A stretch of DNA of 39,859 bases from Syntrophales bacterium (GTDB lineage Bacteria; Desulfobacterota; Syntrophia; Syntrophales; UBA8958). Each line of letters opens with the position of its first letter. The first letter of the stretch is position 1. Location of the stretch: contig JBAYKV010000002.1 in the NCBI GenBank assembly GCA_041664405.1, positions 1 to 39,859 on the forward strand, read 5' to 3'. Below are positions 15,564 to 26,072 of the stretch, in pieces. Made by a program: the position numbers and the translations under genes. The notes under the pieces were generated by a model that saw only the letters and a program-made list of their open reading frames with translations, was not told where the DNA came from and searched no databases.

Positions 15564-16538
15564 CTATAAATCCGGTTCTATTCTCATGCCAATACGCATT
15601 AATAAATTGACTGCCATGATGGTAGCAGCTTTAGCCAATCCAGCGCCACGATAACGGATTCGCTCATGTAAACAATCAATATGCCAGCCTTTTCCCCGGG
15701 GGCAACCGTCTGGGCTGAGAATCAGAGTGACCCATGCCGCAGGGATGTTAGTCCCGTCAAGATAGACTGTCAACATCCACTCAATTATCGGTTTCCCCTG
15801 TTGAAAGGATTTGCTTAACTCGAACCGGTCAAGAGGGATGGCTCGATAAAGATCATGAGACTGCCCTGGCTTAAGCGGTAAATGAATCTCATAGCGGAGT
15901 TGATCGTATATGGTTTTCAGGAAGAGGGAGGCAATTATTTGATATATTTGCAGACGTTGAATCCGTTCTATCCCCTTGATCAATTGCCGTCGGGCATCCC
16001 AGTTCCAGCATTCCCAAAGCGATAGCCGGACTTTTGCGAGACTATTGAGTGGTTTTGGTGTGATTGGAAATTCCTTGCCTTTACGTTCAATCTTTTTGAC
16101 AACTCCGAGGACATCTTCTTCATGAATTGGATCATCGGCGCCCTGACTGCTCTGATCCGGTCGGGTGACTATATAGTGTCCATCCTTATCCATCCCTTTG
16201 GCAATTGTCCTATGTCCAAAGAGAAAGCCGTTAAGGCGGACTACAGCAATATCGCCGATTTTGATCTCTTCTATGGGACGCGATTCGATATGCAGTGTAT
16301 CGCCTGGCTGAATGCAAGGATACATGCATGACCCGCGGGCATGAAATATCGCCCCGCCATGGTCCACTAGGGCGCGACAGAATTCCAGGGGCATTGTTAT
16401 GAGGCTGTTGGCATGTCGTCTACCACTGTGCCGCATCCGGAAAGGGCAGGAGGAAACAGTGCATTCCATCAGGCTGTTATTTCTTTCCGTGTGACATGAA
16501 GATTCCGGCGTGCCGACAGTGTTATAGACAATGGACAT
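15564..16538 (-). CDS. Fusion protein: cytoplasmic S26/S24 signal-peptidase-like domain (Cys/His at catalytic positions) + C-terminal GNAT-like domain
   Basis: 324 aa, no TM helix. GSCMYPCIQPGD...GDIAVV...GHRTIA aligns by eye with the signal peptidase boxes G-D-S-M-Y-P-T-L...GD and (K/H)R-V/I. The C-terminus has a GNAT-like acetyl-CoA motif RYRGAGLAKAATIMAV. Confidence 0.55.
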   Translation of the reverse strand: MSIVYNTVGTPESSCHTERNNSLMECTVSSCPFRMRHSGRRHANSLITMPLEFCRALVDHGGAIFHARGSCMYPCIQPGDTLHIESRPIEEIKIGDIAVVRLNGFLFGHRTIAKGMDKDGHYIVTRPDQSSQGADDPIHEEDVLGVVKKIERKGKEFPITPKPLNSLAKVRLSLWECWNWDARRQLIKGIERIQRLQIYQIIASLFLKTIYDQLRYEIHLPLKPGQSHDLYRAIPLDRFELSKSFQQGKPIIEWMLTVYLDGTNIPAAWVTLILSPDGCPRGKGWHIDCLHERIRYRGAGLAKAATIMAVNLLMRIGMRIEPDL

Positions 16539-16753: not shown

Positions 16754-18001
16754 ATGGTACGTGCTTCCGATCTTGTAAAGGGCAAAACGATGAGTTTGCA
16801 CGATCATGACACAAAGGATTCATCGCCAAAAGCTATGGCGCCGAAAGATGCGTTGCTGGAAGAGGCGCGCATATCTTTCCGGCTAAGTGAAATTGATGTT
16901 CTTAAGCTAAAAAAGGGAAATCAGCAGGAAATTAACATACCCACCAAAATTGGGGAAACGATTGTTGACGAAATCAGGCTGACACCGGAGCCGGAAGAGG
17001 AACAAATAGCCCCTCCTTCATCGCCTCCGGCGATGGCGATAAATATACGTTCAGTTCGGCAGGATGAAATACAGGTTGCGGAAACTTCGGAAGGACTCAG
17101 TGAAGAAGCTGGACTCAGAAGGGTTTATGTTGCGACGAAACAGTATATGGCCCATATCCGGGAGCAGGTGAAGAATGGGGACTCCATCCAGCTTGAACCG
17201 GCGCTGATCTATATTAATAATATCCTCAATTCCTCTGAAGATATGGTTTCGCAAATTTACCAGTTAACAGTGGATTACGAGCAGGAAGACGACTATTATC
17301 TTTCTTCTCCGATCAATACCATGGTTTGTGGAGTGAAGATTGCACAGCGGATGGGATACGAAAAATCGAAACTCATCGAATTCGGTCTGGCGGCATTACT
17401 TCATGATATCGGGATGTTCATTATCCCGGAGCAGATCTTGAACAAGCAAGGAAGACTGTCAGATGACGAGATGGATCTTATCAAGAAACATCCCGATTTA
17501 GCGGTTGAGATATTGGCGCCTTTTACGGCGACATATCCGAAGATGATCAAGGCAATATACGAACACCAGGAGCGGGCAAATGGACAGGGCTACCCCCGGG
17601 GGCTCAAAGGTGACGAAATATGCGACTATGCCCAGATTATCGGTATTTGTGATTCTTATGAAGCCATGACCCATCACCGCCCCCATAAGAAGATACTGTT
17701 GCAGTCCGACTCGATCAAGGAATTGATTGGTTCAAAGACAAAGCTATTTGAACCCAGGATTATCAAGATGTTTTTAGATGAGATCTCCATTTATCCCATC
17801 GGCAGTTATATCCGGCTTAATAACCGCAATATTGGCAGGGTAGTCGCAACAAGCAAGGGTAACCCGATGAAACCGGTGGTCAATCTGATCTTCGACGAAA
17901 AGGGGAAAAAAATAGAACCGCCCCGGATTATGGATCTGAAGAATTACCCGGTTTTAAACATTGAGGCGAGCATCTCTGCCGATGATTTGCCGGGAAACTG
18001 A
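16754..18001 (+). CDS. HD-GYP domain protein (probable c-di-GMP phosphodiesterase) with uncharacterised ~190-aa N-terminal region
   Basis: 415 aa. ALLHDIGM (HD) and HQERANGQGYPRGL (GYP) motifs. GGAGAA sits about 10 nt upstream of ATG 16754. The only plus-strand gene in this part of the window. Confidence 0.85.
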   Translation: MVRASDLVKGKTMSLHDHDTKDSSPKAMAPKDALLEEARISFRLSEIDVLKLKKGNQQEINIPTKIGETIVDEIRLTPEPEEEQIAPPSSPPAMAINIRSVRQDEIQVAETSEGLSEEAGLRRVYVATKQYMAHIREQVKNGDSIQLEPALIYINNILNSSEDMVSQIYQLTVDYEQEDDYYLSSPINTMVCGVKIAQRMGYEKSKLIEFGLAALLHDIGMFIIPEQILNKQGRLSDDEMDLIKKHPDLAVEILAPFTATYPKMIKAIYEHQERANGQGYPRGLKGDEICDYAQIIGICDSYEAMTHHRPHKKILLQSDSIKELIGSKTKLFEPRIIKMFLDEISIYPIGSYIRLNNRNIGRVVATSKGNPMKPVVNLIFDEKGKKIEPPRIMDLKNYPVLNIEASISADDLPGN

Positions 18002-18018
18002 AATTCTGAACACCGAAA

Positions 18019-19206
18019 TTAGTAGCGCCGTCTGATTCCTTGGGTGACAGTGTAGATTAGCTGGCGGAAAATCTCCCCGAATCTTGAATAATGAACGGGA
18101 AAGGATGTATCTGATATTCTTGCCCGTTTTCGCTGTCCCTGAATGGCCGCCGGTGGGAATAAAGTGCGGTACATGAAATGCCCCTTTCCTTTCACGCCGG
18201 TATTCATGGCCAGGTAGAGTAGATAACTGCTCCCGCGGATTCGGAAACCATGGGACTGAAGATACTGAAAGAAACGCTGTTCCCAGGTTAGTCGATCGGG
18301 ACGGAGGCGGTCCATAATCCGGCTGGGAACCGATCCCGGGCTTAAGTGTTCCATTGCCGCCAATCCAAAATAAACAAGATCCGTAAGATGAAAGTCCTCG
18401 CTTTCCTGAACGACAAATTCCCAATCCAGTTGATCCTTGCAGGTGGTCAGGACCTGTTGGAGATCATAGACTAAAATCAGGCGGTTAAAGGAGTGATTTA
18501 TCCTCAGGGCGTGCTCACAAAGGCAGATGAGCAAATGTTCCGGCGCCAGTATCCTGCTCTCCACATTATCCAGTTGAACCATCCGGGCGAACTGCCATAA
18601 ACGGTCCACATTCATGAATTTTGAAAAAACAAATGCCGGTACGGAGGTATTTACCGGGTGCCAGTGGATATGGAGGATCGGAGAGCCGACATTGGGCTGC
18701 CGGTATTCCAGGCTTGATAGGTAACCCTCGGGAGTTATGAGGTCTGGATGGCTATCAACATCGACAGCCCCATACCCGAAACCTCTGAGACATGAGTCGA
18801 TTATGGTGAGATCCGACTTCCGGATCAGGAGATCGACGTCCGACATGCCGCGCATGGCAATACTGGGATAGATATATTCGGCGAGGGCAAAACCTTTCAG
18901 GAGCAAGTGGGGGGCGCCGCACTCGTTTAACATGGCCAAAACTAATTTTAGATGCCCGCGGAGGGACAAATTTGATATGAGATTTTGATGGAATCTTCGC
19001 GCCAGCGCCTGACTATAGACCAGAGGGACGCGACCAGTCAGCACCCTTTTCTTCAGAAGATAAAACAGAACCGCGGCCACATCTTCCTCATATCCGCAAT
19101 GGACAAACTTGTGCCAGTTGTAAGGAGAATCTGGAATGTAGTTCTGACCGGCAAAAAGGAGATTGCGGATAAGTTTGGTTTCCGGAGACGACGGTGTGTA
19201 TTTCAT
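18019..19206 (-). CDS. Uncharacterised nucleotidyltransferase family protein (PF14907/NTP_transf_5-like)
   Basis: 395 aa. AMRGMSDVDLLIRKSD fits the polymerase-beta-type G-S...D-x-D nucleotidyltransferase motif. ATGA overlap with the ABC exporter stop at 19203-19206. Confidence 0.65.
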   Translation of the reverse strand: MKYTPSSPETKLIRNLLFAGQNYIPDSPYNWHKFVHCGYEEDVAAVLFYLLKKRVLTGRVPLVYSQALARRFHQNLISNLSLRGHLKLVLAMLNECGAPHLLLKGFALAEYIYPSIAMRGMSDVDLLIRKSDLTIIDSCLRGFGYGAVDVDSHPDLITPEGYLSSLEYRQPNVGSPILHIHWHPVNTSVPAFVFSKFMNVDRLWQFARMVQLDNVESRILAPEHLLICLCEHALRINHSFNRLILVYDLQQVLTTCKDQLDWEFVVQESEDFHLTDLVYFGLAAMEHLSPGSVPSRIMDRLRPDRLTWEQRFFQYLQSHGFRIRGSSYLLYLAMNTGVKGKGHFMYRTLFPPAAIQGQRKRARISDTSFPVHYSRFGEIFRQLIYTVTQGIRRRY

Positions 19207-21011
19207 TTGTCGGCGCCAACGATCAGGGAAGCGTAATAAGGGTTCGCGGACATCAGCTCTTCATGAACACCGACTGCTGTCAGGCGGCTATCCTGAATGA
19301 GGAGGATGCGATCGGCATTCTTTAGAAATTCTGTCTGGTTGGAAACGATGATCACGGTTTTTCCCTTAATTGCCGGCCAAAGGGCAGAAAGGATTGACTT
19401 CCCGGTCCTCCCATCCAGAGCGGCGATCGGTTCATCGAGAAGCAGGATATCCGGATTCTTCAACAGTGCCCTGGCAATGGAGATTCGCTGCTTCTGACCT
19501 TCGGACAAAGTGACCCCTCTTTCTCCCGCGACGGTCAGATATCCCTGGGGAAGAGTTTCTATGAAATCGTGAATCCCGGCTATCCTTGCCGCGGCCGCAA
19601 TCTCACTCATAGCGGCGCCGGGGTGACCGTAAGTGATATTTTCCATGATCGTTCCGGAAAGAAACCAGTGCTGCTGGGGAACGTAACCCAAGGCTTCCCG
19701 TAGAGACTGGACGTCATATTCGGCGGCTGGCCGGGAGTCGAAATATATTTCTCCGGAAGTCGGTTTATAAAAAAGAAGCAGCAGGCTTACCAAGGTGGTT
19801 TTCCCCACCCCGCTGGGGCCGGCGATGGCAATCCGCTCTCCGGCCTTGATCGAAAAGTTGATATCTTCAAGGACCGGCTTACGTTCATCGTAGGCAAAAC
19901 ATACTCCCCGAAATTCGACGTCCCCATGCAGATTTTTTACGGAATTTCCATGGCCGTAATTTTCTTCCAGGACAAGATCAAAGAGGTGGGAGACCCTATT
20001 GGCGGAGGCAAGCGCGCTTTGCATCTGCAGATTGGCGGTTGCCAGAAATTGCGCCGGACCGAAGACATAACCAAGATAGGCCTGATACGCGAAAAGCGAA
20101 CCGAGGCTCCAGTGACCGGTAATTACCCAGTAGGCGCCGATGAAAAGTACCAGCGCCCGGGCAATGCCGGGCAGGGAATTGATGGCAGCGTTAGCCAGGG
20201 CATTTACCGTTCCCTGCTCGATAGAGATATTTACACCCTTTTTCAGGGCCGTCACGAGCTGATCCATGGTTTTCACTTCTTTAGCAAAGGCCTTGATCAA
20301 GGGGAGGGAAATAAGGGATTCCTGGAACTGACCGGAAATCATCGCCTGTGTTTCCATATTTTCATTACTGAGGATCAGGAGCCGGTCTGAAAAATATCGG
20401 GCCACAAAGATCAGCGCTGGTAAGACGGCGATCATGACCATGGTCAATCGCCAGTCAAGGTAGAGGAGAAAGCAGAAACCGCCGACGAAGCGAACAGTAT
20501 TTTCCATTATCCCGACCATGGTACTAGAAAAGAACCAGCCCATCCCCTGCACATCCGATTCCAGACGGTTCATAAGATAGCCGGTCTGAATTCTGTCAAA
20601 GAACTTTTTGGGATAATGAAATACCCGCTCCAGGAGTGAGGATTGAATATCGAGGATGACCTCCTGGTCGAAACGATCAAAATAGTGCTGCTGATAAAGG
20701 CTTAACAGCCTGTCAGCAGCGGTGATGGCGATTATGATCAGGATCGTTGGCGCCAGCAAGCACAGTTGCCGGTTCATAATGACGTCATCGATGAGATAGC
20801 GGGTAATCATAGGTAGTGGGAAGCTAAGCCCTGCCGTAAGAAAGACCAGCCCGATGCCAACGATAAATCGGGTTTTGTGTTTTCCTGCATAGGTGGAGAA
20901 TTGTCGATAGAGTTCACTGAGTGCCCGGTCGGAAGACGGAGTAGAATGAATACGGTCCGGAGTACGTTTGCGGGAGAGCCCGGCTTTTAGATATTGGCGC
21001 CAGCTTTTCAT
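19203..21011 (-). CDS. ABC exporter, fused permease/ATPase (type I, MsbA-like); no N-terminal C39 peptidase domain
   Basis: 602 aa. Six-helix TMD, then Walker A GPSGVGKTT, signature LSEGQKQRISIA and Walker B ILLLDEP. Confidence 0.9.
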   Translation of the reverse strand: MKSWRQYLKAGLSRKRTPDRIHSTPSSDRALSELYRQFSTYAGKHKTRFIVGIGLVFLTAGLSFPLPMITRYLIDDVIMNRQLCLLAPTILIIIAITAADRLLSLYQQHYFDRFDQEVILDIQSSLLERVFHYPKKFFDRIQTGYLMNRLESDVQGMGWFFSSTMVGIMENTVRFVGGFCFLLYLDWRLTMVMIAVLPALIFVARYFSDRLLILSNENMETQAMISGQFQESLISLPLIKAFAKEVKTMDQLVTALKKGVNISIEQGTVNALANAAINSLPGIARALVLFIGAYWVITGHWSLGSLFAYQAYLGYVFGPAQFLATANLQMQSALASANRVSHLFDLVLEENYGHGNSVKNLHGDVEFRGVCFAYDERKPVLEDINFSIKAGERIAIAGPSGVGKTTLVSLLLLFYKPTSGEIYFDSRPAAEYDVQSLREALGYVPQQHWFLSGTIMENITYGHPGAAMSEIAAAARIAGIHDFIETLPQGYLTVAGERGVTLSEGQKQRISIARALLKNPDILLLDEPIAALDGRTGKSILSALWPAIKGKTVIIVSNQTEFLKNADRILLIQDSRLTAVGVHEELMSANPYYASLIVGADK

Positions 21012-21049: not shown

Positions 21050-21919
21050 TTATAAAAGTTTTTTGTCGAGCAAAAGGCAGGCCTTTTCGAATTCCTCTTC
21101 AATATCGCCGGCCAAACTGACATGGAATCGGCAAGCGGGAATGGCAGCGGCTGCGTTGCAGACATTCTGAAAGACCCTCTCTTTCAAGGCAAGAGCAGCA
21201 TCGTTATTGGTGTCCAGAAATCCCCGTAGCGATTTACCAAAAGCGGCGCGGGTCATCAGGATGGACGTCTCACCCGGGCCGATGGGAGTTACCAGGTATT
21301 TGCGGTCCGGAAAAATAAAGAATATGTGGGAGATGGGGAGCGCTTGCTGAACAGGCCAGCTTTCCAGATCATCACATTTCAGTAAGTGGCTCCAGGTCGG
21401 AAAAGGGTGCCCCCGGTAACAGCCCTGCTGGTTGCGGACAATCAACGTTTCTTCATCGCAACGGATTTGATAGGCATTTGCCAGTCGTCGGCATAAAGTT
21501 GATTTGCCTGTTCCGGATGGTCCGGTAATTAAAATGCCTTGGCCGTTCCTTTCAATCAACCCGGCGTGAACGAGGAAACCCCACCGGCGGATGGCTTCCT
21601 GAAAAACCGGCGTCAGGGCGTGTTGAATATAGTAGATATCACGCCGTCTTCCCCGGCGTTGGTTGAATCGGCAGTGCCAATCATGAGAGCCGCTTTCCGC
21701 CCAGATGGTTACGAACCCTGAATCATGAACGATCCCGGGAGGATGCTCCGCTCCTCTGTTCACATGAAAGGTTAAACTGGCAGTAGGGTGGGGATGCTCG
21801 TGGCGCTTTAGCTTCAGGACAGCGGCGAATTTATCCAGCCAGGTCTGGAGGGGCATTCCGGCTGCAAAAGTCCAGCGCTGACCGTCGGCGAGTTCAAGAC
21901 GCCAAGGGCAGTTCACCAT
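21050..21919 (-). CDS. HPr kinase/phosphorylase C-terminal-domain-like P-loop protein (candidate peptide Ser kinase; ScmC-like)
   Basis: 289 aa. FLVHAGLIERNGQGILITGPSGTGKSTLCRRL...IRCDEETLI matches the HprK C-domain pattern (LHA..v...g.gvLi.G.SG.GKS....L......l..DD...i). Confidence 0.65.
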   Translation of the reverse strand: MVNCPWRLELADGQRWTFAAGMPLQTWLDKFAAVLKLKRHEHPHPTASLTFHVNRGAEHPPGIVHDSGFVTIWAESGSHDWHCRFNQRRGRRRDIYYIQHALTPVFQEAIRRWGFLVHAGLIERNGQGILITGPSGTGKSTLCRRLANAYQIRCDEETLIVRNQQGCYRGHPFPTWSHLLKCDDLESWPVQQALPISHIFFIFPDRKYLVTPIGPGETSILMTRAAFGKSLRGFLDTNNDAALALKERVFQNVCNAAAAIPACRFHVSLAGDIEEEFEKACLLLDKKLL

Positions 21920-21961: not shown

Positions 21962-22249
21962 TTAGCCGCCGCCACTGGGGTGTACACCTTGACCGGTATT
22001 GCACATATTTGTGGCACTCTGTCCTACCTGGCAAACTAAAGCTCCCGTAGCTCCCTTGCCCACGGAGCAATTATTTGAGGCTGAAGGACCGAGTATACAA
22101 GCTTGTAGAGCAGAATCACCCCTTCCGCACTGACTTGTGGCGCTATTACCGCGCCCGCAATTGACGCTTGCCCCTTGCACCTCCCAGACCTCCTTGCCCA
22201 TCAGATTAACAAGAACCGGTTTTTCGTAGATCAACTTTTTCTCTTTCAT
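21962..22249 (-). CDS. Candidate RiPP precursor peptide: ~30-aa leader + six-Cys decapeptide-repeat core
   Basis: 95 aa: MKEKKLIYEKPVLVNLMGKEVWEVQGASVN-CGRGNSATSQ-CGRGDSALQA-CILGPSASNN-CSVGKGATGALV-CQVGQSATNM-CNTGQGVHPSGGG. AAGGAGG lies 7 nt upstream of the ATG. ATGA overlap with the stop of the upstream rSAM gene at 22246-22249. Flanked by maturase-type genes. Confidence 0.6.
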   Translation of the reverse strand: MKEKKLIYEKPVLVNLMGKEVWEVQGASVNCGRGNSATSQCGRGDSALQACILGPSASNNCSVGKGATGALVCQVGQSATNMCNTGQGVHPSGGG

Positions 22250-23382
22250 ACAACGCCTCCTTTTGAAGGTAAGGAAAGGCCGCCGGGACGAAGGCGTGTT
22301 TCCGGAAACAACCCCTGCCGGCTAGCCTCTTCACAATACCAGAACGGCGCCCAGAGATCATGGGAGCTGTAATAATTCTGGGCAATACAACTGCCCAGGC
22401 ATACCTGCTGCATGACACAGATTGAGCAAGTCCCTTTGAGTTGCCGGGGCATCCCGGCGCGAAGCTCCTCAAGGACGGGGTTATGGAGCCAGACATCCGA
22501 CAGGGAATCCCGGGACGCATTTCCGAAAACGAGCTCCGGCACCGTGGCACCGATCCCGCACAGGGCATAGGCGCCGTCGGCAAGGACGCCAAGAATCCTC
22601 AAAATACCACAGCAGTAACATCCATCCCCATTGGTACCGAACATTTTTCCGAGCCCGCGAAAGGCCGCGGGGTGGTGAAAGCACAAGGGCAGGTCCGTGG
22701 ATGCCGAGAGTTCATTGTCCACGTACGTTCCGATCGCGATGAGTTCTTCAATGGTCAGGGTTTCCCCCCGAGCATGCATCTGAACTCCCCTTGCTGTAGG
22801 CTGAACAATATTGAATTTCACCGAACCGGCGCCAATGGTCTCTGCGAGTTTAATGACGGCAGGTATCTGATCCCTGTTACGGCGCATGACCGTCATGATG
22901 ACTTGGGGTCTTAGTCCCGCGTTTACCAGGTTTTCAATTCCGCGCAGAGTTTCATGAAAACATCCCTCTTTACCACGAATCCAGTCATGGGTCACCTCGT
23001 CCATGCCGTCCAGACTGACGGCCACGGAAACCTCTTTACAGGCGGCGATCATTCGTGACAGTTCTGGTGTGCATAATGTGGCATTTGTTTCCACGGAAAC
23101 GCCTATCTGCTTGTCCCGGGTAATTGTCAGCAATTCACCGATCCGGGGATGGAGAAGGGGTTCTCCTCCTGTCAGTTTGATGTGGTTAAGACCCATCGGC
23201 AGCGCCTGGTCGATGATCGTGGCAAACAGTTTCGGAGCAAGGGCGGTCAATGCCTTTTTGGCGGCAACATAAGCAGGTTCCATCCAGCAGTGGCGGCAAC
23301 GCAGATTGCAGCTGTCGGTAAGATAGAAGTAGAGCTGGCTCAAGGGATGAGAGCCCGATTTGTCTTCTAATTCACTATTCAT
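22246..23382 (-). CDS. Radical SAM/SPASM-domain peptide-modifying enzyme (second of two)
   Basis: 378 aa. CNLRCRHC (CxxxCxxC) near the N-terminus. C-terminal Cys-rich SPASM region (CYCCGILRILGVLADGAYALCG...CSICVMQQVCLGSC). 8-nt overlap with the upstream rSAM gene. Confidence 0.9.
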   Translation of the reverse strand: MNSELEDKSGSHPLSQLYFYLTDSCNLRCRHCWMEPAYVAAKKALTALAPKLFATIIDQALPMGLNHIKLTGGEPLLHPRIGELLTITRDKQIGVSVETNATLCTPELSRMIAACKEVSVAVSLDGMDEVTHDWIRGKEGCFHETLRGIENLVNAGLRPQVIMTVMRRNRDQIPAVIKLAETIGAGSVKFNIVQPTARGVQMHARGETLTIEELIAIGTYVDNELSASTDLPLCFHHPAAFRGLGKMFGTNGDGCYCCGILRILGVLADGAYALCGIGATVPELVFGNASRDSLSDVWLHNPVLEELRAGMPRQLKGTCSICVMQQVCLGSCIAQNYYSSHDLWAPFWYCEEASRQGLFPETRLRPGGLSLPSKGGVV

Positions 23383-24493
23383 GACTGGCAGTTACCTCCG
23401 GGAGGCGGCCTCCCTGGTTCAAGAATCGCCATAGACAGGAATCGGGGCTGGGATGATCAATTTCGCCGATGAGGGTATAGGCCGTTGCCGGACAGTTACC
23501 CGTGCAATAAGGGGTATAGGGGCAGTCCCGGCAAAAGGGGAAATGGTCAAGCGATATCCGGGAGCGTTGTCTTAGTCCCTGTAGTTTTGGATGGCGTTGC
23601 CAGACATCCCAAAGGTCATCACGGTTGATGTGGCCCAGGTTCACATGACCCAATTGCAGGCAGGGGACGATGACCCCGTCCGCGCGGACAGCCATGGTCT
23701 TCATGGCGCCATTGCACCCGGTGAGAAATCCCCGACCTTCCGGCCGTTCACGGCTTTCACGCCGGGCCCGTTCCATTTCCAGCCAGAACTGTGCATCCGC
23801 CAAGGGACCGGCAGTGGCATTGATCCGACCTTCATACTTGGCGGCAAGTGTGAGTAGGGTTTCCATGGCTAGTGTTTGCTCTTCTGTCGTAAGTTGGGTC
23901 TGGGCGGCGTTTCTCCGGCACAACCCCATGTGGGAGGCAGAATTGGTGGAAAAAGAAGGAATTTCGAGTTCCTCAAGCAGAAATCGGGTAATATCCTCGA
24001 GTTCATGGACATTTTTCCGGTGAATGGTTACGCGGACAGTTACGGGCAAATTATTTGCCTGTAAGGCACGTATGCCACGAACAGCCTTCAAAAAGTTGCC
24101 TTCTCCCCGGAAGGCGTCATGGGTGGTATCGATTGCCCCGTCGATAGAGATCTGAATGAGATCGCAGCGGCCGGTCGAGGCCAGGAATGCAGCCGTGTCA
24201 TTATCAATGAGGGTACCGTTGCTGAGAATGGAAAAACGCATCCGATTGGCCACAATGGATTGGATGATGTCCCGAAGGTCTTTGCGGTAAAAAGGTTCAC
24301 CACCTGAAAGAGTGACGGTCATAATCCCGCCACTGCCCAATTCGGCAAAAAACTGGCACCATGATTCAAGAGGGAGGTCTTCTTTAACATCTCCAGGAGC
24401 TGAAAAATGACTGCAATATGCACAGCGGAGATTACAGAAACTCGTGATCTCAATATCGACATTGCGGGGGGTCTTCATCACCTGCGCAGCCAT
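23375..24493 (-). CDS. Radical SAM/SPASM-domain peptide-modifying enzyme (first of two)
   Basis: CNLRCAYC motif and a SPASM region (CNGAMKTMAVRADGVIVPC...CRDCPYTPYCTGNC). I chose ATG 24493 because GAGGA lies 4 nt upstream and it sits 8 nt after the PqqD-like stop. The track ORF extends to 24550, and another ATG lies at 24514. Confidence 0.88.
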   Translation of the reverse strand: MAAQVMKTPRNVDIEITSFCNLRCAYCSHFSAPGDVKEDLPLESWCQFFAELGSGGIMTVTLSGGEPFYRKDLRDIIQSIVANRMRFSILSNGTLIDNDTAAFLASTGRCDLIQISIDGAIDTTHDAFRGEGNFLKAVRGIRALQANNLPVTVRVTIHRKNVHELEDITRFLLEELEIPSFSTNSASHMGLCRRNAAQTQLTTEEQTLAMETLLTLAAKYEGRINATAGPLADAQFWLEMERARRESRERPEGRGFLTGCNGAMKTMAVRADGVIVPCLQLGHVNLGHINRDDLWDVWQRHPKLQGLRQRSRISLDHFPFCRDCPYTPYCTGNCPATAYTLIGEIDHPSPDSCLWRFLNQGGRLPEVTASHE

Positions 24494-24500
24494 ATGATCC

Positions 24501-24788
24501 TCATTCAGCTTCATAAACAGCCAGACCGATATCGATCGTGGCCTGAACAAAATCTTCGAGCTGGGCTTTCATGTCGCTGGGAATCGCTTCTGCCCGTTTG
24601 TGGACAATATCTGCAATATCATCAATGCTATGCCGACCGTCGAGGTGTTTCCAGATGAGGACGCCAATTGGGTTGAGGCCGAAGGCATTACCCGTTTCCG
24701 GATCGAACAGGATGGCCCAGTCGTCGAACTCCTCCCGGAGTATTACCAGAGGATTAGCAATAACATTTTTTATATCATGCTCATTCAT
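24501..24788 (-). CDS. PqqD-family protein (RiPP recognition element / peptide chaperone)
   Basis: NPLVILREEFDDWAILFDPETGNAFGLNPIGVLIWKHLDGRHSIDDIADIV is a typical PqqD pattern. The start is uncertain: ATG 24788 (95 aa) or 24854 (117 aa, overlapping the upstream ATPase gene by 20 nt). Confidence 0.7.
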   Translation of the reverse strand: MNEHDIKNVIANPLVILREEFDDWAILFDPETGNAFGLNPIGVLIWKHLDGRHSIDDIADIVHKRAEAIPSDMKAQLEDFVQATIDIGLAVYEAE

Positions 24789-24834
24789 ACGGTGGATTAT
24801 AGCCCGTGGATGTGAAAGTGTCAATCTGAAAAGA

Positions 24835-25629
24835 CTAAAGGGAATCTCTGACAACCTTTAAAATCAGCGGTTCGTCAATTTCCTGGACTTTCAGGCTGAA
24901 GCCGATCAGCAGCGCCAAGTCACAAACATTGTTGATCTTCCGTGGAATGCCCCCGGAGTATTGATAAATGGCATCATACGCCTTTTCCGTGAATAGCTCA
25001 CGATCACAACCTGCCTTGCTGAGGCGGAAACGGATGTAACTGGACGTTTCTGACCGCGGCAGAGGATTGAGGTGATACCTTATGGCGATGCGTTGATCAA
25101 GCTGTTTATATTCACGGATCATATCTCGCAGTTCCGGCTGGCCAATGAGGAGGAAAGTCATCAGAAAACGATCGTTCATCTGGAAGTTTAACAAGAGACG
25201 GATCTCTTCGAACGTCTCACCGAAAATGAGCTGGGCTTCGTCAATAATCAACAAGGTGCTCTTTCCCTTGTTCAGGTTGTCCAGCAGGTGGTTATTGAGG
25301 ATAACAAGCAGATCGGTTTTGGAATTGGAATTGGAATCCAGTCCCAATTGGTAATGAACCTCTTTTATGAAATCCAGGGCGTTCAAGGAGGGATTAGTGA
25401 TGAGACCGATGTCAAATTCCTTTTCAGGTAGTTGTTGTATAAAGACCCTGCTCAAGGTCGTTTTCCCACTGCCGATATCACCAGTGAGGAGTGCGGCGCC
25501 CTTCATCCTTTTAACGGCATACAGTAGGCGGACGAGGGCTTCTTCGTGTTCCGGAGAATAGTACATGAAGTCCGGATCGGGGACGTTCTCAAAGGGATAC
25601 TTATTGATTTTCCAGTAATCTAAATACAT
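24835..25629 (-). CDS. ExeA/GspA-like AAA ATPase (type found in PEP-CTERM/EPS loci)
   Basis: 264 aa. YLDYWKINKYPFENVPDPDFMYYSPEHEEAL...LTGDIGSGKTTL...LLIIDEAQ is the characteristic ExeA-family N-terminus with Walker A and B. Confidence 0.8.
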   Translation of the reverse strand: MYLDYWKINKYPFENVPDPDFMYYSPEHEEALVRLLYAVKRMKGAALLTGDIGSGKTTLSRVFIQQLPEKEFDIGLITNPSLNALDFIKEVHYQLGLDSNSNSKTDLLVILNNHLLDNLNKGKSTLLIIDEAQLIFGETFEEIRLLLNFQMNDRFLMTFLLIGQPELRDMIREYKQLDQRIAIRYHLNPLPRSETSSYIRFRLSKAGCDRELFTEKAYDAIYQYSGGIPRKINNVCDLALLIGFSLKVQEIDEPLILKVVRDSL

Positions 25630-26072
25630 TTTATCATTCCATCAATGGCCATATAAATTTCTGAAAAACAGAGGCGATAATTATAAACCGACTGTCTGTA
25701 CGGGTCACGTATATCCTGGTTGACGCCATCGTAATCTCTGGCAAATGTTTTCAGGAGTCGAATCTTTTCCTCATATTGTGGATAGTCGCCGATAAGCTGC
25801 TGCCGATGAGCGTTTTCCATCACTACAATCCAGTCTGCTTCCCCTATCATAACATCTGAAATCGGCCTGGAAAAATGGAGATAACCGTCATAGCCATGCT
25901 CTTCCAGCATTTTTATCGCTGCGGGATCGCCGGCAGCGCCATGCATGTCGATCATTCCGGCGGAACAAGCGATGATGTCATTTCTCTTGAGCTTAGCCAA
26001 TCTTCCCTTCAATATCCTCTCTGCCATGAAGCTCCTGACGATATTGGCGGTGCAGATAAATAAGATAGTCAT
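25620..26072 (-). CDS. Low-molecular-weight protein-tyrosine phosphatase (Wzb-like)
   Basis: 150 aa. N-terminal P-loop ILFICTANIVRS (CX5R-S) and a C-terminal DP loop (DIRDPY). 10-nt overlap with the downstream ATPase gene. Confidence 0.8.
   Translation of the reverse strand: MTILFICTANIVRSFMAERILKGRLAKLKRNDIIACSAGMIDMHGAAGDPAAIKMLEEHGYDGYLHFSRPISDVMIGEADWIVVMENAHRQQLIGDYPQYEEKIRLLKTFARDYDGVNQDIRDPYRQSVYNYRLCFSEIYMAIDGMIKCI

Follow-up and report, generated by a model that had tools for sequence, protein, structure and literature searches.

The linear polyphosphorylated peptides (LPPs), a group of Bacillota RiPPs (peptides that are synthesized ribosomally and modified post-translationally), come from clusters with a conserved core that consists of a discrete RiPP recognition element (RRE), a kinase similar to HprK, an uncharacterised nucleoside triphosphate (NTP) transferase, an MsbA-like pump, and a SipW-like peptidase (Popov et al. 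2026; PMC13381572). The kinase acts by polyphosphorylating Ser3 in the core peptide, a signal-peptidase-I-like (SpI-like) enzyme removes the leader in an RRE-dependent manner, the leaders follow the consensus YxxPxVLxHQxIxFETxxS, and the clusters lie within capsular polysaccharide loci; the paper does not mention radical S-adenosylmethionine (SAM) enzymes and calls LPPs restricted to Bacillota (PMC13381572). For the RREs of both lasso and LPP systems, a general leader-binding rule, [Y/W]xxPx[L/V/I/A/F/Y], has been formulated (PMC13381572), and in lasso leaders, the YxxPx[L] motif occupies positions -17 to -12 (PMC10368454). In the ranthipeptide freyrasin, the core of the precursor PapA carries six in-line CX3D motifs on which the radical SAM/SPASM enzyme PapB forms thioethers (PMC9413430). 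The SynChlorMet (Scm) system is represented in NCBIfam by the models TIGR04248-TIGR04252, which cover ScmD, ScmC, ScmE, ScmF, and the precursor ScmA; we found no published biochemistry or other experimental work on it in the open-access literature, and work outside open access could exist. Here we analyze a small open reading frame (ORF) and the Scm cassette that surrounds it in a 39,859-nucleotide (nt) stretch of DNA from a Syntrophales bacterium (positions 1 to 39,859 of contig JBAYKV010000002.1, assembly GCA_041664405.1), hereinafter the window.

The ORF encodes a 95-residue peptide which, with a probability that we put at roughly three in four, is the translated, ScmA-type precursor of a SynChlorMet cassette, that is, of a ribosomal-peptide maturation operon acting by the scheme proposed below. 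ScmC, ScmD, ScmE, and ScmF all score above the equivalog cut-offs of their NCBIfam models, and the peptide gene lies between ScmF and ScmC (Table 1). Because four equivalog models pass, this is a bona fide SynChlorMet cassette (a computer-curated kind), and therefore the peptide is taken as the ScmA of the cassette despite failing the ScmA hidden Markov model (HMM). An earlier note on this DNA did not recognize the repeat of the peptide as a described class; however, the cassette had already been curated, and a model of its precursor, SCM_precur_ScmA (TIGR04252), exists. The half of the system that comprises the kinase, the signal peptidase, the NTP transferase, and the exporter was likewise absent from that reading. 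The operon runs in the order ScmD-ScmE-ScmF-peptide-ScmC-ABC exporter-NTP transferase, with the last two genes on the same strand at gaps of 0-40 nt. ScmE and ScmF each contain the CxxxCxxC motif, a Radical_SAM core, and a full SPASM domain but no N-terminal RRE domain, and the best relative of both in the PDB is SkfB. The best PDB matches of the ScmC family profile are HPr kinase/phosphorylase (E-values between 5e-5 and 3e-4; the matched region spans H-x-x-L-V…G-x-G-K-S…DD).

Upon retranslation, the six cysteines of the peptide were found exactly where the earlier note had listed them, at residues 31, 41, 51, 61, 73, and 83 (spacings of 10, 10, 10, 12, and 10), each opening a C-x-x-G-x-(S/G)-A unit; the C-x-x-G motif is present in all six (CGRGNSATSQ, CGRGDSALQA, CILGPSASNN, CSVGKGATGALV, CQVGQSATNM, and CNTGQGVHPSGGG). 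When the core was shuffled 200,000 times, four or more equal Cys spacings arose at a frequency of 5.5e-4, and six CxxG motifs at a frequency of 1e-5. Tandem Repeats Finder showed no DNA-level tandem repeat in the peptide gene, and therefore the periodicity is a feature of the protein; the repeat is maintained at the protein level and did not arise by recent duplication. The Shine-Dalgarno sequence, previously placed 7 nt before the ATG, is essentially where it was said to be, with a measured spacer of 6 nt. As for the translational coupling that had been proposed from the ATGA overlap between the peptide start and the TGA of the upstream ScmF gene, the overlap is indeed present in the window but is not a general feature: in the closest relative of the locus (L001), ScmF and the peptide gene do not overlap and are separated by 20 nt. 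No terminator-like hairpin was found between the peptide gene and ScmC, so there is no evidence of precursor-specific attenuation.

Comparison with this closest relative, an ENA metagenome contig with an ScmF (P0001) that is 89% identical to that of the window, bears directly on the coding status of the ORF. A 95-aa peptide ORF likewise follows ScmF in L001, and the two peptide genes differ at 27 nt, with 24 synonymous and 3 non-synonymous differences, the latter confined to two codons (S46A and T85V). The ratio of non-synonymous to synonymous differences per site (pN/pS) is 0.037 for the peptide gene compared to 0.25 for the ScmF gene, which implies that the peptide is more constrained than its maturase. 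Judging from these substitutions, the ORF is a real gene under strong purifying selection; the absence of such selection relative to the antisense ORF 22175..22372, which the earlier note would have taken as grounds to abandon the precursor, is not observed, and the antisense ORF is excluded. The peptide gene of L001 (7134..7421, of the same length) was missed by the gene prediction of the source. The C-terminus of ScmF differs in length (370 aa vs 378 aa in the comparison of L001 with the window).

A direct homology search with the peptide sequence returned no matches in a set of 5.8 billion proteins. Small ORFs of this kind mostly go uncalled, and therefore synteny with ScmF was used to find relatives of the peptide. 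An alignment of ScmF homologs yielded 463 relatives among GTDB species genomes, of which 80 loci were fetched, and all locus counts are given over 81. The sampled loci come from Syntrophales, Desulfobacterales, Chlorobium, Aminicenantes, Nitrospirae, Brocadiaceae, and Methanomicrobiales/Methanotrichaceae. Six-frame scans detected peptides with a Y/W-x-x-P-x-[LIV] leader and a C-x-x-G repeat in 60 of the 81 loci, which is an undercount because at least 3 further loci hold such peptides that the filters missed; the peptide gene is immediately downstream of ScmF in 40 loci and present in several copies in 10. Thus, the earlier proposal that the ORF is the precursor for the two adjacent radical SAM enzymes draws support from synteny in 60 loci, direct succession to ScmF in 40, and strong purifying selection, and the lack of conservation next to homologous maturases that would have spoken against it is not observed.

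The repeat itself is conserved in the peptides of this type (type A; 58 peptides with 321 units). The unit opens with Cys in 100% of cases; Gly occupies position +3 in 95%, positions +4 and +5 are Ser, Gly, Thr, or Ala, and position +6 is Ala in 57% and Pro in 14% (71% together). Spacings between successive cysteines are mostly 10 (142) or 11 (71), together 213 of 263, with 9 (18) and 12 (15) next. Each type A peptide has 3-12 units, and some cassette peptides have more Cys-opened units. A profile built from the cassette-linked peptides retrieved 22 proteins from the 5.8-billion set, in its word-indexed form, all of them unnamed or annotated as 'hypothetical protein', whereas an exhaustive HMMER scan of 1.84 billion representatives (clusters at 50% identity) retrieved 1,080 clusters at E<=1e-3. 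Of the 150 clusters listed, nearly all have lengths of 60-115 aa, and a spot check of 14 sequences showed the expected arrangement of Cys repeats in 13. The same profile had no matches in Pfam or the PDB.

Several deviations from this pattern were observed. In 10 loci (L009, L015, L021, L027, L028, L029, L050, L061, L068, and L078), there is a second precursor type with the same YE[KP]P leader, cores of 115-139 aa, and 14-19 Cys including CC and CxC pairs, often as 2-3 paralogs per locus. In L002-L006 and L012 (ScmF identity ~60-64%), the precursors are located ~2-3 kb upstream of ScmE on the opposite strand rather than beside ScmF; these are 104-160 aa long, with 7-12 units and a conserved …DLSGG-x-A-[YF]-A junction, and are sometimes encoded by two tandem genes. 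Among the longest, P0191 (266 aa) combines the leader and ~10 CQPG-type units with a spacer rich in Asp, Lys, and Ser and a ~90-residue, non-repeat C-terminal domain, and in P0195 and P0164 (~265 aa), the repeats extend over almost the whole length.

The leader ties the peptide to the RRE of the cassette. It had been likened to the leaders recognized by PqqD-type domains, and this likeness is borne out: Y8-x-x-P-x-L13 fits the motif of discrete lasso-type RREs, and ScmD, the second-best match of which is the lasso PqqD chaperone NF033530, heads the operon. In the family alignments (A2/A3), the Pro is invariant and the motif Y/W-x-x-P-x-[LIV] is conserved; in most peptides, 17-21 residues separate the Tyr from the first Cys that follows it, and in the window, this distance is 23 residues.

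Of the described systems, the LPP clusters resemble the window in gene content. All five parts of the LPP core have counterparts in the window, with the SpI-like gene 1.5 kb off the operon and below the cut-off, a likeness at the level of gene families; both leaders contain YxxPx[L/V], and both systems reside in a polysaccharide locus. In contrast to the LPP clusters, for which neither is reported, the window encodes a Cys-repeat core and a pair of radical SAM/SPASM enzymes, and the presence of these enzymes argues for additional core chemistry beyond Ser polyphosphorylation. Nor is the extended LPP leader consensus present, given that YEKPVLVNLMGKEVWEVQGAS in the window shares only YxxPxL with it. 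The two systems also differ in their hosts, which are Bacillota for the LPPs but anaerobic bacteria of the Deltaproteobacteria type, Chlorobi, Aminicenantes, and methanogens for the Scm cassette. We accordingly rejected an LPP in the published sense, on account of the extra radical SAM enzymes, the different extended leader, and the different phyla. The phosphorylated lasso peptides (paeninodin, Bsf type) share with the window the YxxPxL leader, the discrete PqqD-like RRE, the HprK-like kinase, and the NTP transferase (PMC10368454, PMC13381572). The ORFs scanned between 4697 and 31875 included no family match to a macrolactam synthetase or a B2 leader peptidase, although no search was aimed at these two families; a lasso system was rejected on this basis.

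Among thioether systems, freyrasin resembles the Scm cassette in the six in-line, short, Cys-opened motifs and the radical SAM/SPASM maturase; the differences are that CX3D has a carboxylate acceptor whereas the C-x-x-G-x-S-A units are almost devoid of acidic residues, and that PapB acts alone whereas the Scm cassette has two enzymes. Many sactisynthases, for example, AlbA and SkfB, contain a fused N-terminal RRE, and sactipeptide cores are hairpins with nested links. The cassette is similar to sactipeptide systems (maturases SkfB, AlbA, and StsB) in that the precursor is Cys-rich and SkfB is the best solved relative of the enzymes, but differs in having a discrete RRE and a core built as a tandem repeat. 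Against the models of these synthases, ScmF and ScmE score 78 and 82 bits, respectively, for PapB (cut-off 340), 67 and 88 for SkfB (cut-off 300), and 92 and 96 for StsB (cut-off 625); for AlbA (cut-off 850), ScmF scores 79, and this model is not among the 25 matches listed for ScmE. With scores so far below the cut-offs, membership in any of these characterized thioether-synthase families was rejected.

From the above, a scheme of maturation can be proposed. The discrete, PqqD-like ScmD would bind the leader at Y8-x-x-P-x-L13 and hand the core over to the two RRE-less radical SAM/SPASM enzymes, ScmE and ScmF, which would then iterate over the six C-x-x-G-x-(S/G)-A units, most likely forming one cross-link in every unit from its invariant Cys, either a short-range thioether or another Cys-derived link, in the manner of PapB. 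The HprK-like ScmC would phosphorylate a Ser, and the SpI-like enzyme would cut off the leader where small residues form a junction; shortly before the first Cys, A-[YF]-A is found in many members of the family, and the window has G-A-S. The MsbA-like pump would export the product, and the NTP transferase would add a group of unspecified kind. We infer the RRE step as well as the kinase, peptidase, and export/transferase steps by analogy with the LPP system of Bacillota. The radical SAM step is a different matter: thioether formation on each Cys is our best guess, and a weak one, with the odds evenly balanced. It is suggested by the invariant Cys, the SPASM enzymes with SkfB as the nearest structure, and the PapA/PapB precedent, which make a ladder of thioethers plausible.

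Several observations weigh against the precursor assignment and the scheme built on it. The peptide matches TIGR04252 with only 14.1 bits (E=0.04), under the 35-bit cut-off. The homology of ScmE and ScmF to thioether synthases is no stronger than that to PqqE, MftC, NirJ/AhbD, and WgkB; the units almost lack Asp and Glu, so that carboxylate-directed chemistry of the PapB type is inapplicable, and no acceptor residue is evident in them; and the role of the second radical SAM enzyme lacks an explanation. The window SpI-like gene lies outside the operon, scores below the family cut-off, and encodes Cys at the position of the nucleophile Ser, and the …HQxIxFETxxS extension of the LPP leader motif is missing from the window leader. 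The weak match to the curated model has to be read against the composition of that model. It comprises 49 positions, of which 17-47 align with residues 49-79 of the peptide, that is, over the repeats, whereas the window peptide is about twice as long and has six units; even at E<=1, only 28 of 56 cassette-linked peptides match it, with a best E-value of 1.3e-6. Hence TIGR04252 appears to be narrow and to miss most of the actual precursors, and in its architecture of leader and repeat, the window peptide matches the peptides linked to other Scm cassettes.

The alternative that survives best accepts the peptide as the cassette precursor but assigns to the radical SAM enzymes a Cys/Gly-centered chemistry other than thioether formation: oxidation of Cys to formylglycine as by anaerobic sulfatase-maturating enzymes (anSME), thio-oxazole-type heterocycles, C-C cross-links, epimerisation, or free Cys serving as metallophore ligands. 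We regard it as somewhat unlikely. ScmE and ScmF score equally well or better on the NirJ, AhbD, MftC, PqqE, and WgkB models than on those of sacti- and ranthipeptide synthases, the conserved positions of the unit are Gly +3 and Ala/Pro +6 with no fixed carboxylate or hydroxyl acceptor, two enzymes imply at least two reaction types, and Cys-derived RiPP metallophores are known (bufferins, PMC11626156). On the other hand, sacti- and ranthipeptides are classically recognized by invariant, evenly spaced Cys next to SPASM enzymes, the best solved relative of ScmE as well as ScmF is SkfB, and for the formylglycine option in particular, the anSME motif C-x-[AP]-x-R is absent. The attempt to read the chemistry from enzyme homology was given up because thioether, C-C, decarboxylase, and heme-pathway SPASM models score alike, all far below the cut-offs.

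It is very improbable that the ORF encodes instead a small Cys-ladder protein, secreted or structural, that belongs to the polysaccharide locus (for example, a disulfide-stapled solenoid) and would be a chance neighbor of the radical SAM enzymes and not their substrate. The polysaccharide setting of the window is compatible with such a protein, and small-residue-rich repeats of 10-12 residues with one Cys each recall β-solenoid proteins; nevertheless, the N-terminus is charged and contains no signal peptide, an RRE-binding motif is present in the leader, neither the PDB nor Pfam yielded a match, and peptides of this type accompany ScmE/ScmF in 60 of the 81 loci, in different phyla and in archaea and irrespective of the genes around them. 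Finally, a spurious ORF, or the antisense ORF as the true gene, has a negligible chance of being correct, since, notwithstanding the missed gene call in the source assembly of L001 and the failure to find a close homolog in the 5.8-billion set, this explanation is already refuted by the synonymous substitutions in the peptide frame, and the ribosome-binding site is conserved, as is the family as a whole.

The accessory genes of the cassette are distributed unevenly among the related loci. Profile searches detected ScmC in 63 of the 81 loci, an S26-type (SpI-like) peptidase in 48, the ABC exporter in 34, and the nucleotidyltransferase in 27. ScmD and the SpI-like gene were under-detected by tblastn, and profiles mended this for the latter (48 loci) but not for the former (3 loci), so that the co-occurrence of ScmD is unquantified. 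The S26-type peptidase is encoded on the ScmF strand in all but 2 of the 48 loci, mostly after ScmC; these Scm-locus peptidases score 51-64 bits on TIGR02228 (cut-off 51.85) and match SipW weakly. The SpI-like gene of the window is 1.5 kb beyond the operon, and its product has G-S-C-M-Y-P at residues 69-74 where 46 Scm-locus homologs have G-x-S-M-x-P, the catalytic Ser being replaced by Cys; either a degenerate copy or a variant that uses Cys as the nucleophile may be at hand. It also has a C-terminal extension of ~150 residues without a family match. Between the Scm operon and the SpI-like gene, a plus-strand gene of the HD_5/HD-GYP type (16754..18001) encodes a protein with a weak match to a NosR-family cyclic di-GMP phosphodiesterase response regulator. 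At the other end of the operon, the promoter-like sequence ends 7 nt before the ScmD ATG (24788), and the mRNA of the operon may have little or no leader ahead of ScmD.

By its annotated gene families, the window represents a polysaccharide export and biosynthesis locus, encoding a Wza-like export protein, Wzz/BY-kinase, Wzy_C, and an ABC-2 transporter along with a DegT aminotransferase, a low-molecular-weight (LMW) phosphotyrosine phosphatase, and a PEP-CTERM-type ATPase. The latter two, the ATPase being an AAA protein similar to TIGR03015 (249 bits, below the cut-off), adjoin the Scm genes (24835..26072, minus strand), and the same pairing occurs at 9-12 related loci (L002-L006, L035, L039, and L071 among them), the closest relatives included. 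Such adjacency is a hint that the peptide system and the regulation of exopolysaccharide are functionally linked.

Table 1. The precursor peptide gene and the parts of the Scm cassette in the window
Feature	Coordinates	Strand	Remarks
Precursor peptide gene (ScmA-type)	21962..22249	minus	95 aa + stop; translation MKEKKLIYEKPVLVNLMGKEVWEVQGASVNCGRGNSATSQCGRGDSALQACILGPSASNNCSVGKGATGALVCQVGQSATNMCNTGQGVHPSGGG
Peptide leader	22249..~22160	minus	~residues 1-24/30
Leader motif Y8-E-K-P-V-L13 (YxxPxL)	22211..22228	minus	putative RRE-binding element
Peptide core	22159..21965	minus	residues 31-95; six C-x-x-G-x-(S/G)-A units
Shine-Dalgarno AAGGAGG	22256..22262	minus	6-nt spacer to peptide ATG; AAGGAGG kept in L001
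ScmF, radical SAM/SPASM	22246..23382	minus	TIGR04251, 552.6 bits (cut-off 400); stop overlaps peptide ATG
ScmE, second radical SAM/SPASM	23375..24493	minus	TIGR04250, 573.6 bits (cut-off 400); start set at the ATG matching the 372-aa gene call in L001
ScmD, discrete PqqD-like RRE	24501..24788	minus	95 aa; TIGR04248, 117.1 bits (cut-off 100)
Promoter-like TTGACA-17-TATAAT	24796..24824	minus	putative, by consensus only; 12/12 consensus matches
ScmC, HprK-like P-loop protein, putative peptide Ser kinase	21050..21919	minus	TIGR04249, 184.5 bits (cut-off 125)
MsbA-like ABC exporter	19203..21011	minus	transmembrane and nucleotide-binding domains, without C39 peptidase domain
Nucleotidyltransferase PF14907 (NTP_transf_5), uncharacterised	18019..19206	minus	ATGA overlap with ABC gene
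SpI-like (archaeal-type signal-peptidase-I-like), candidate leader peptidase	15564..16538	minus	TIGR02228, 29.8 bits, below cut-off

Altogether, the finding amounts to the correct rediscovery of an uncharacterised but curated RiPP system, whose six-unit precursor is overlooked by annotation pipelines. The family is large (~1,080 clusters), and the window is a clean experimental example, with a single six-unit precursor tightly coupled to both radical SAM enzymes and a consensus promoter. The link in gene content to the LPP and phosphorylated lasso systems provides testable roles for ScmC and the signal-peptidase homolog, and it also suggests that RRE-guided phosphorylation and SpI cleavage form a portable module recruited by different core-modifying enzymes. 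Beyond this, we offer a speculative and, on balance, unlikely reading, namely, that the Scm cassette represents a sister of the LPP/phospho-lasso machinery elaborated by radical SAM enzymes, in which the SPASM enzymes would install a novel type of cross-link or residue, neither the known sactionine nor ranthionine, and the laddered, phosphorylated or nucleotidylated peptide would act together with, or attached to, exopolysaccharide in anaerobes. If this were true, the Scm peptides would make up a new class of RiPPs, with roughly one thousand precursor clusters that lack annotation.

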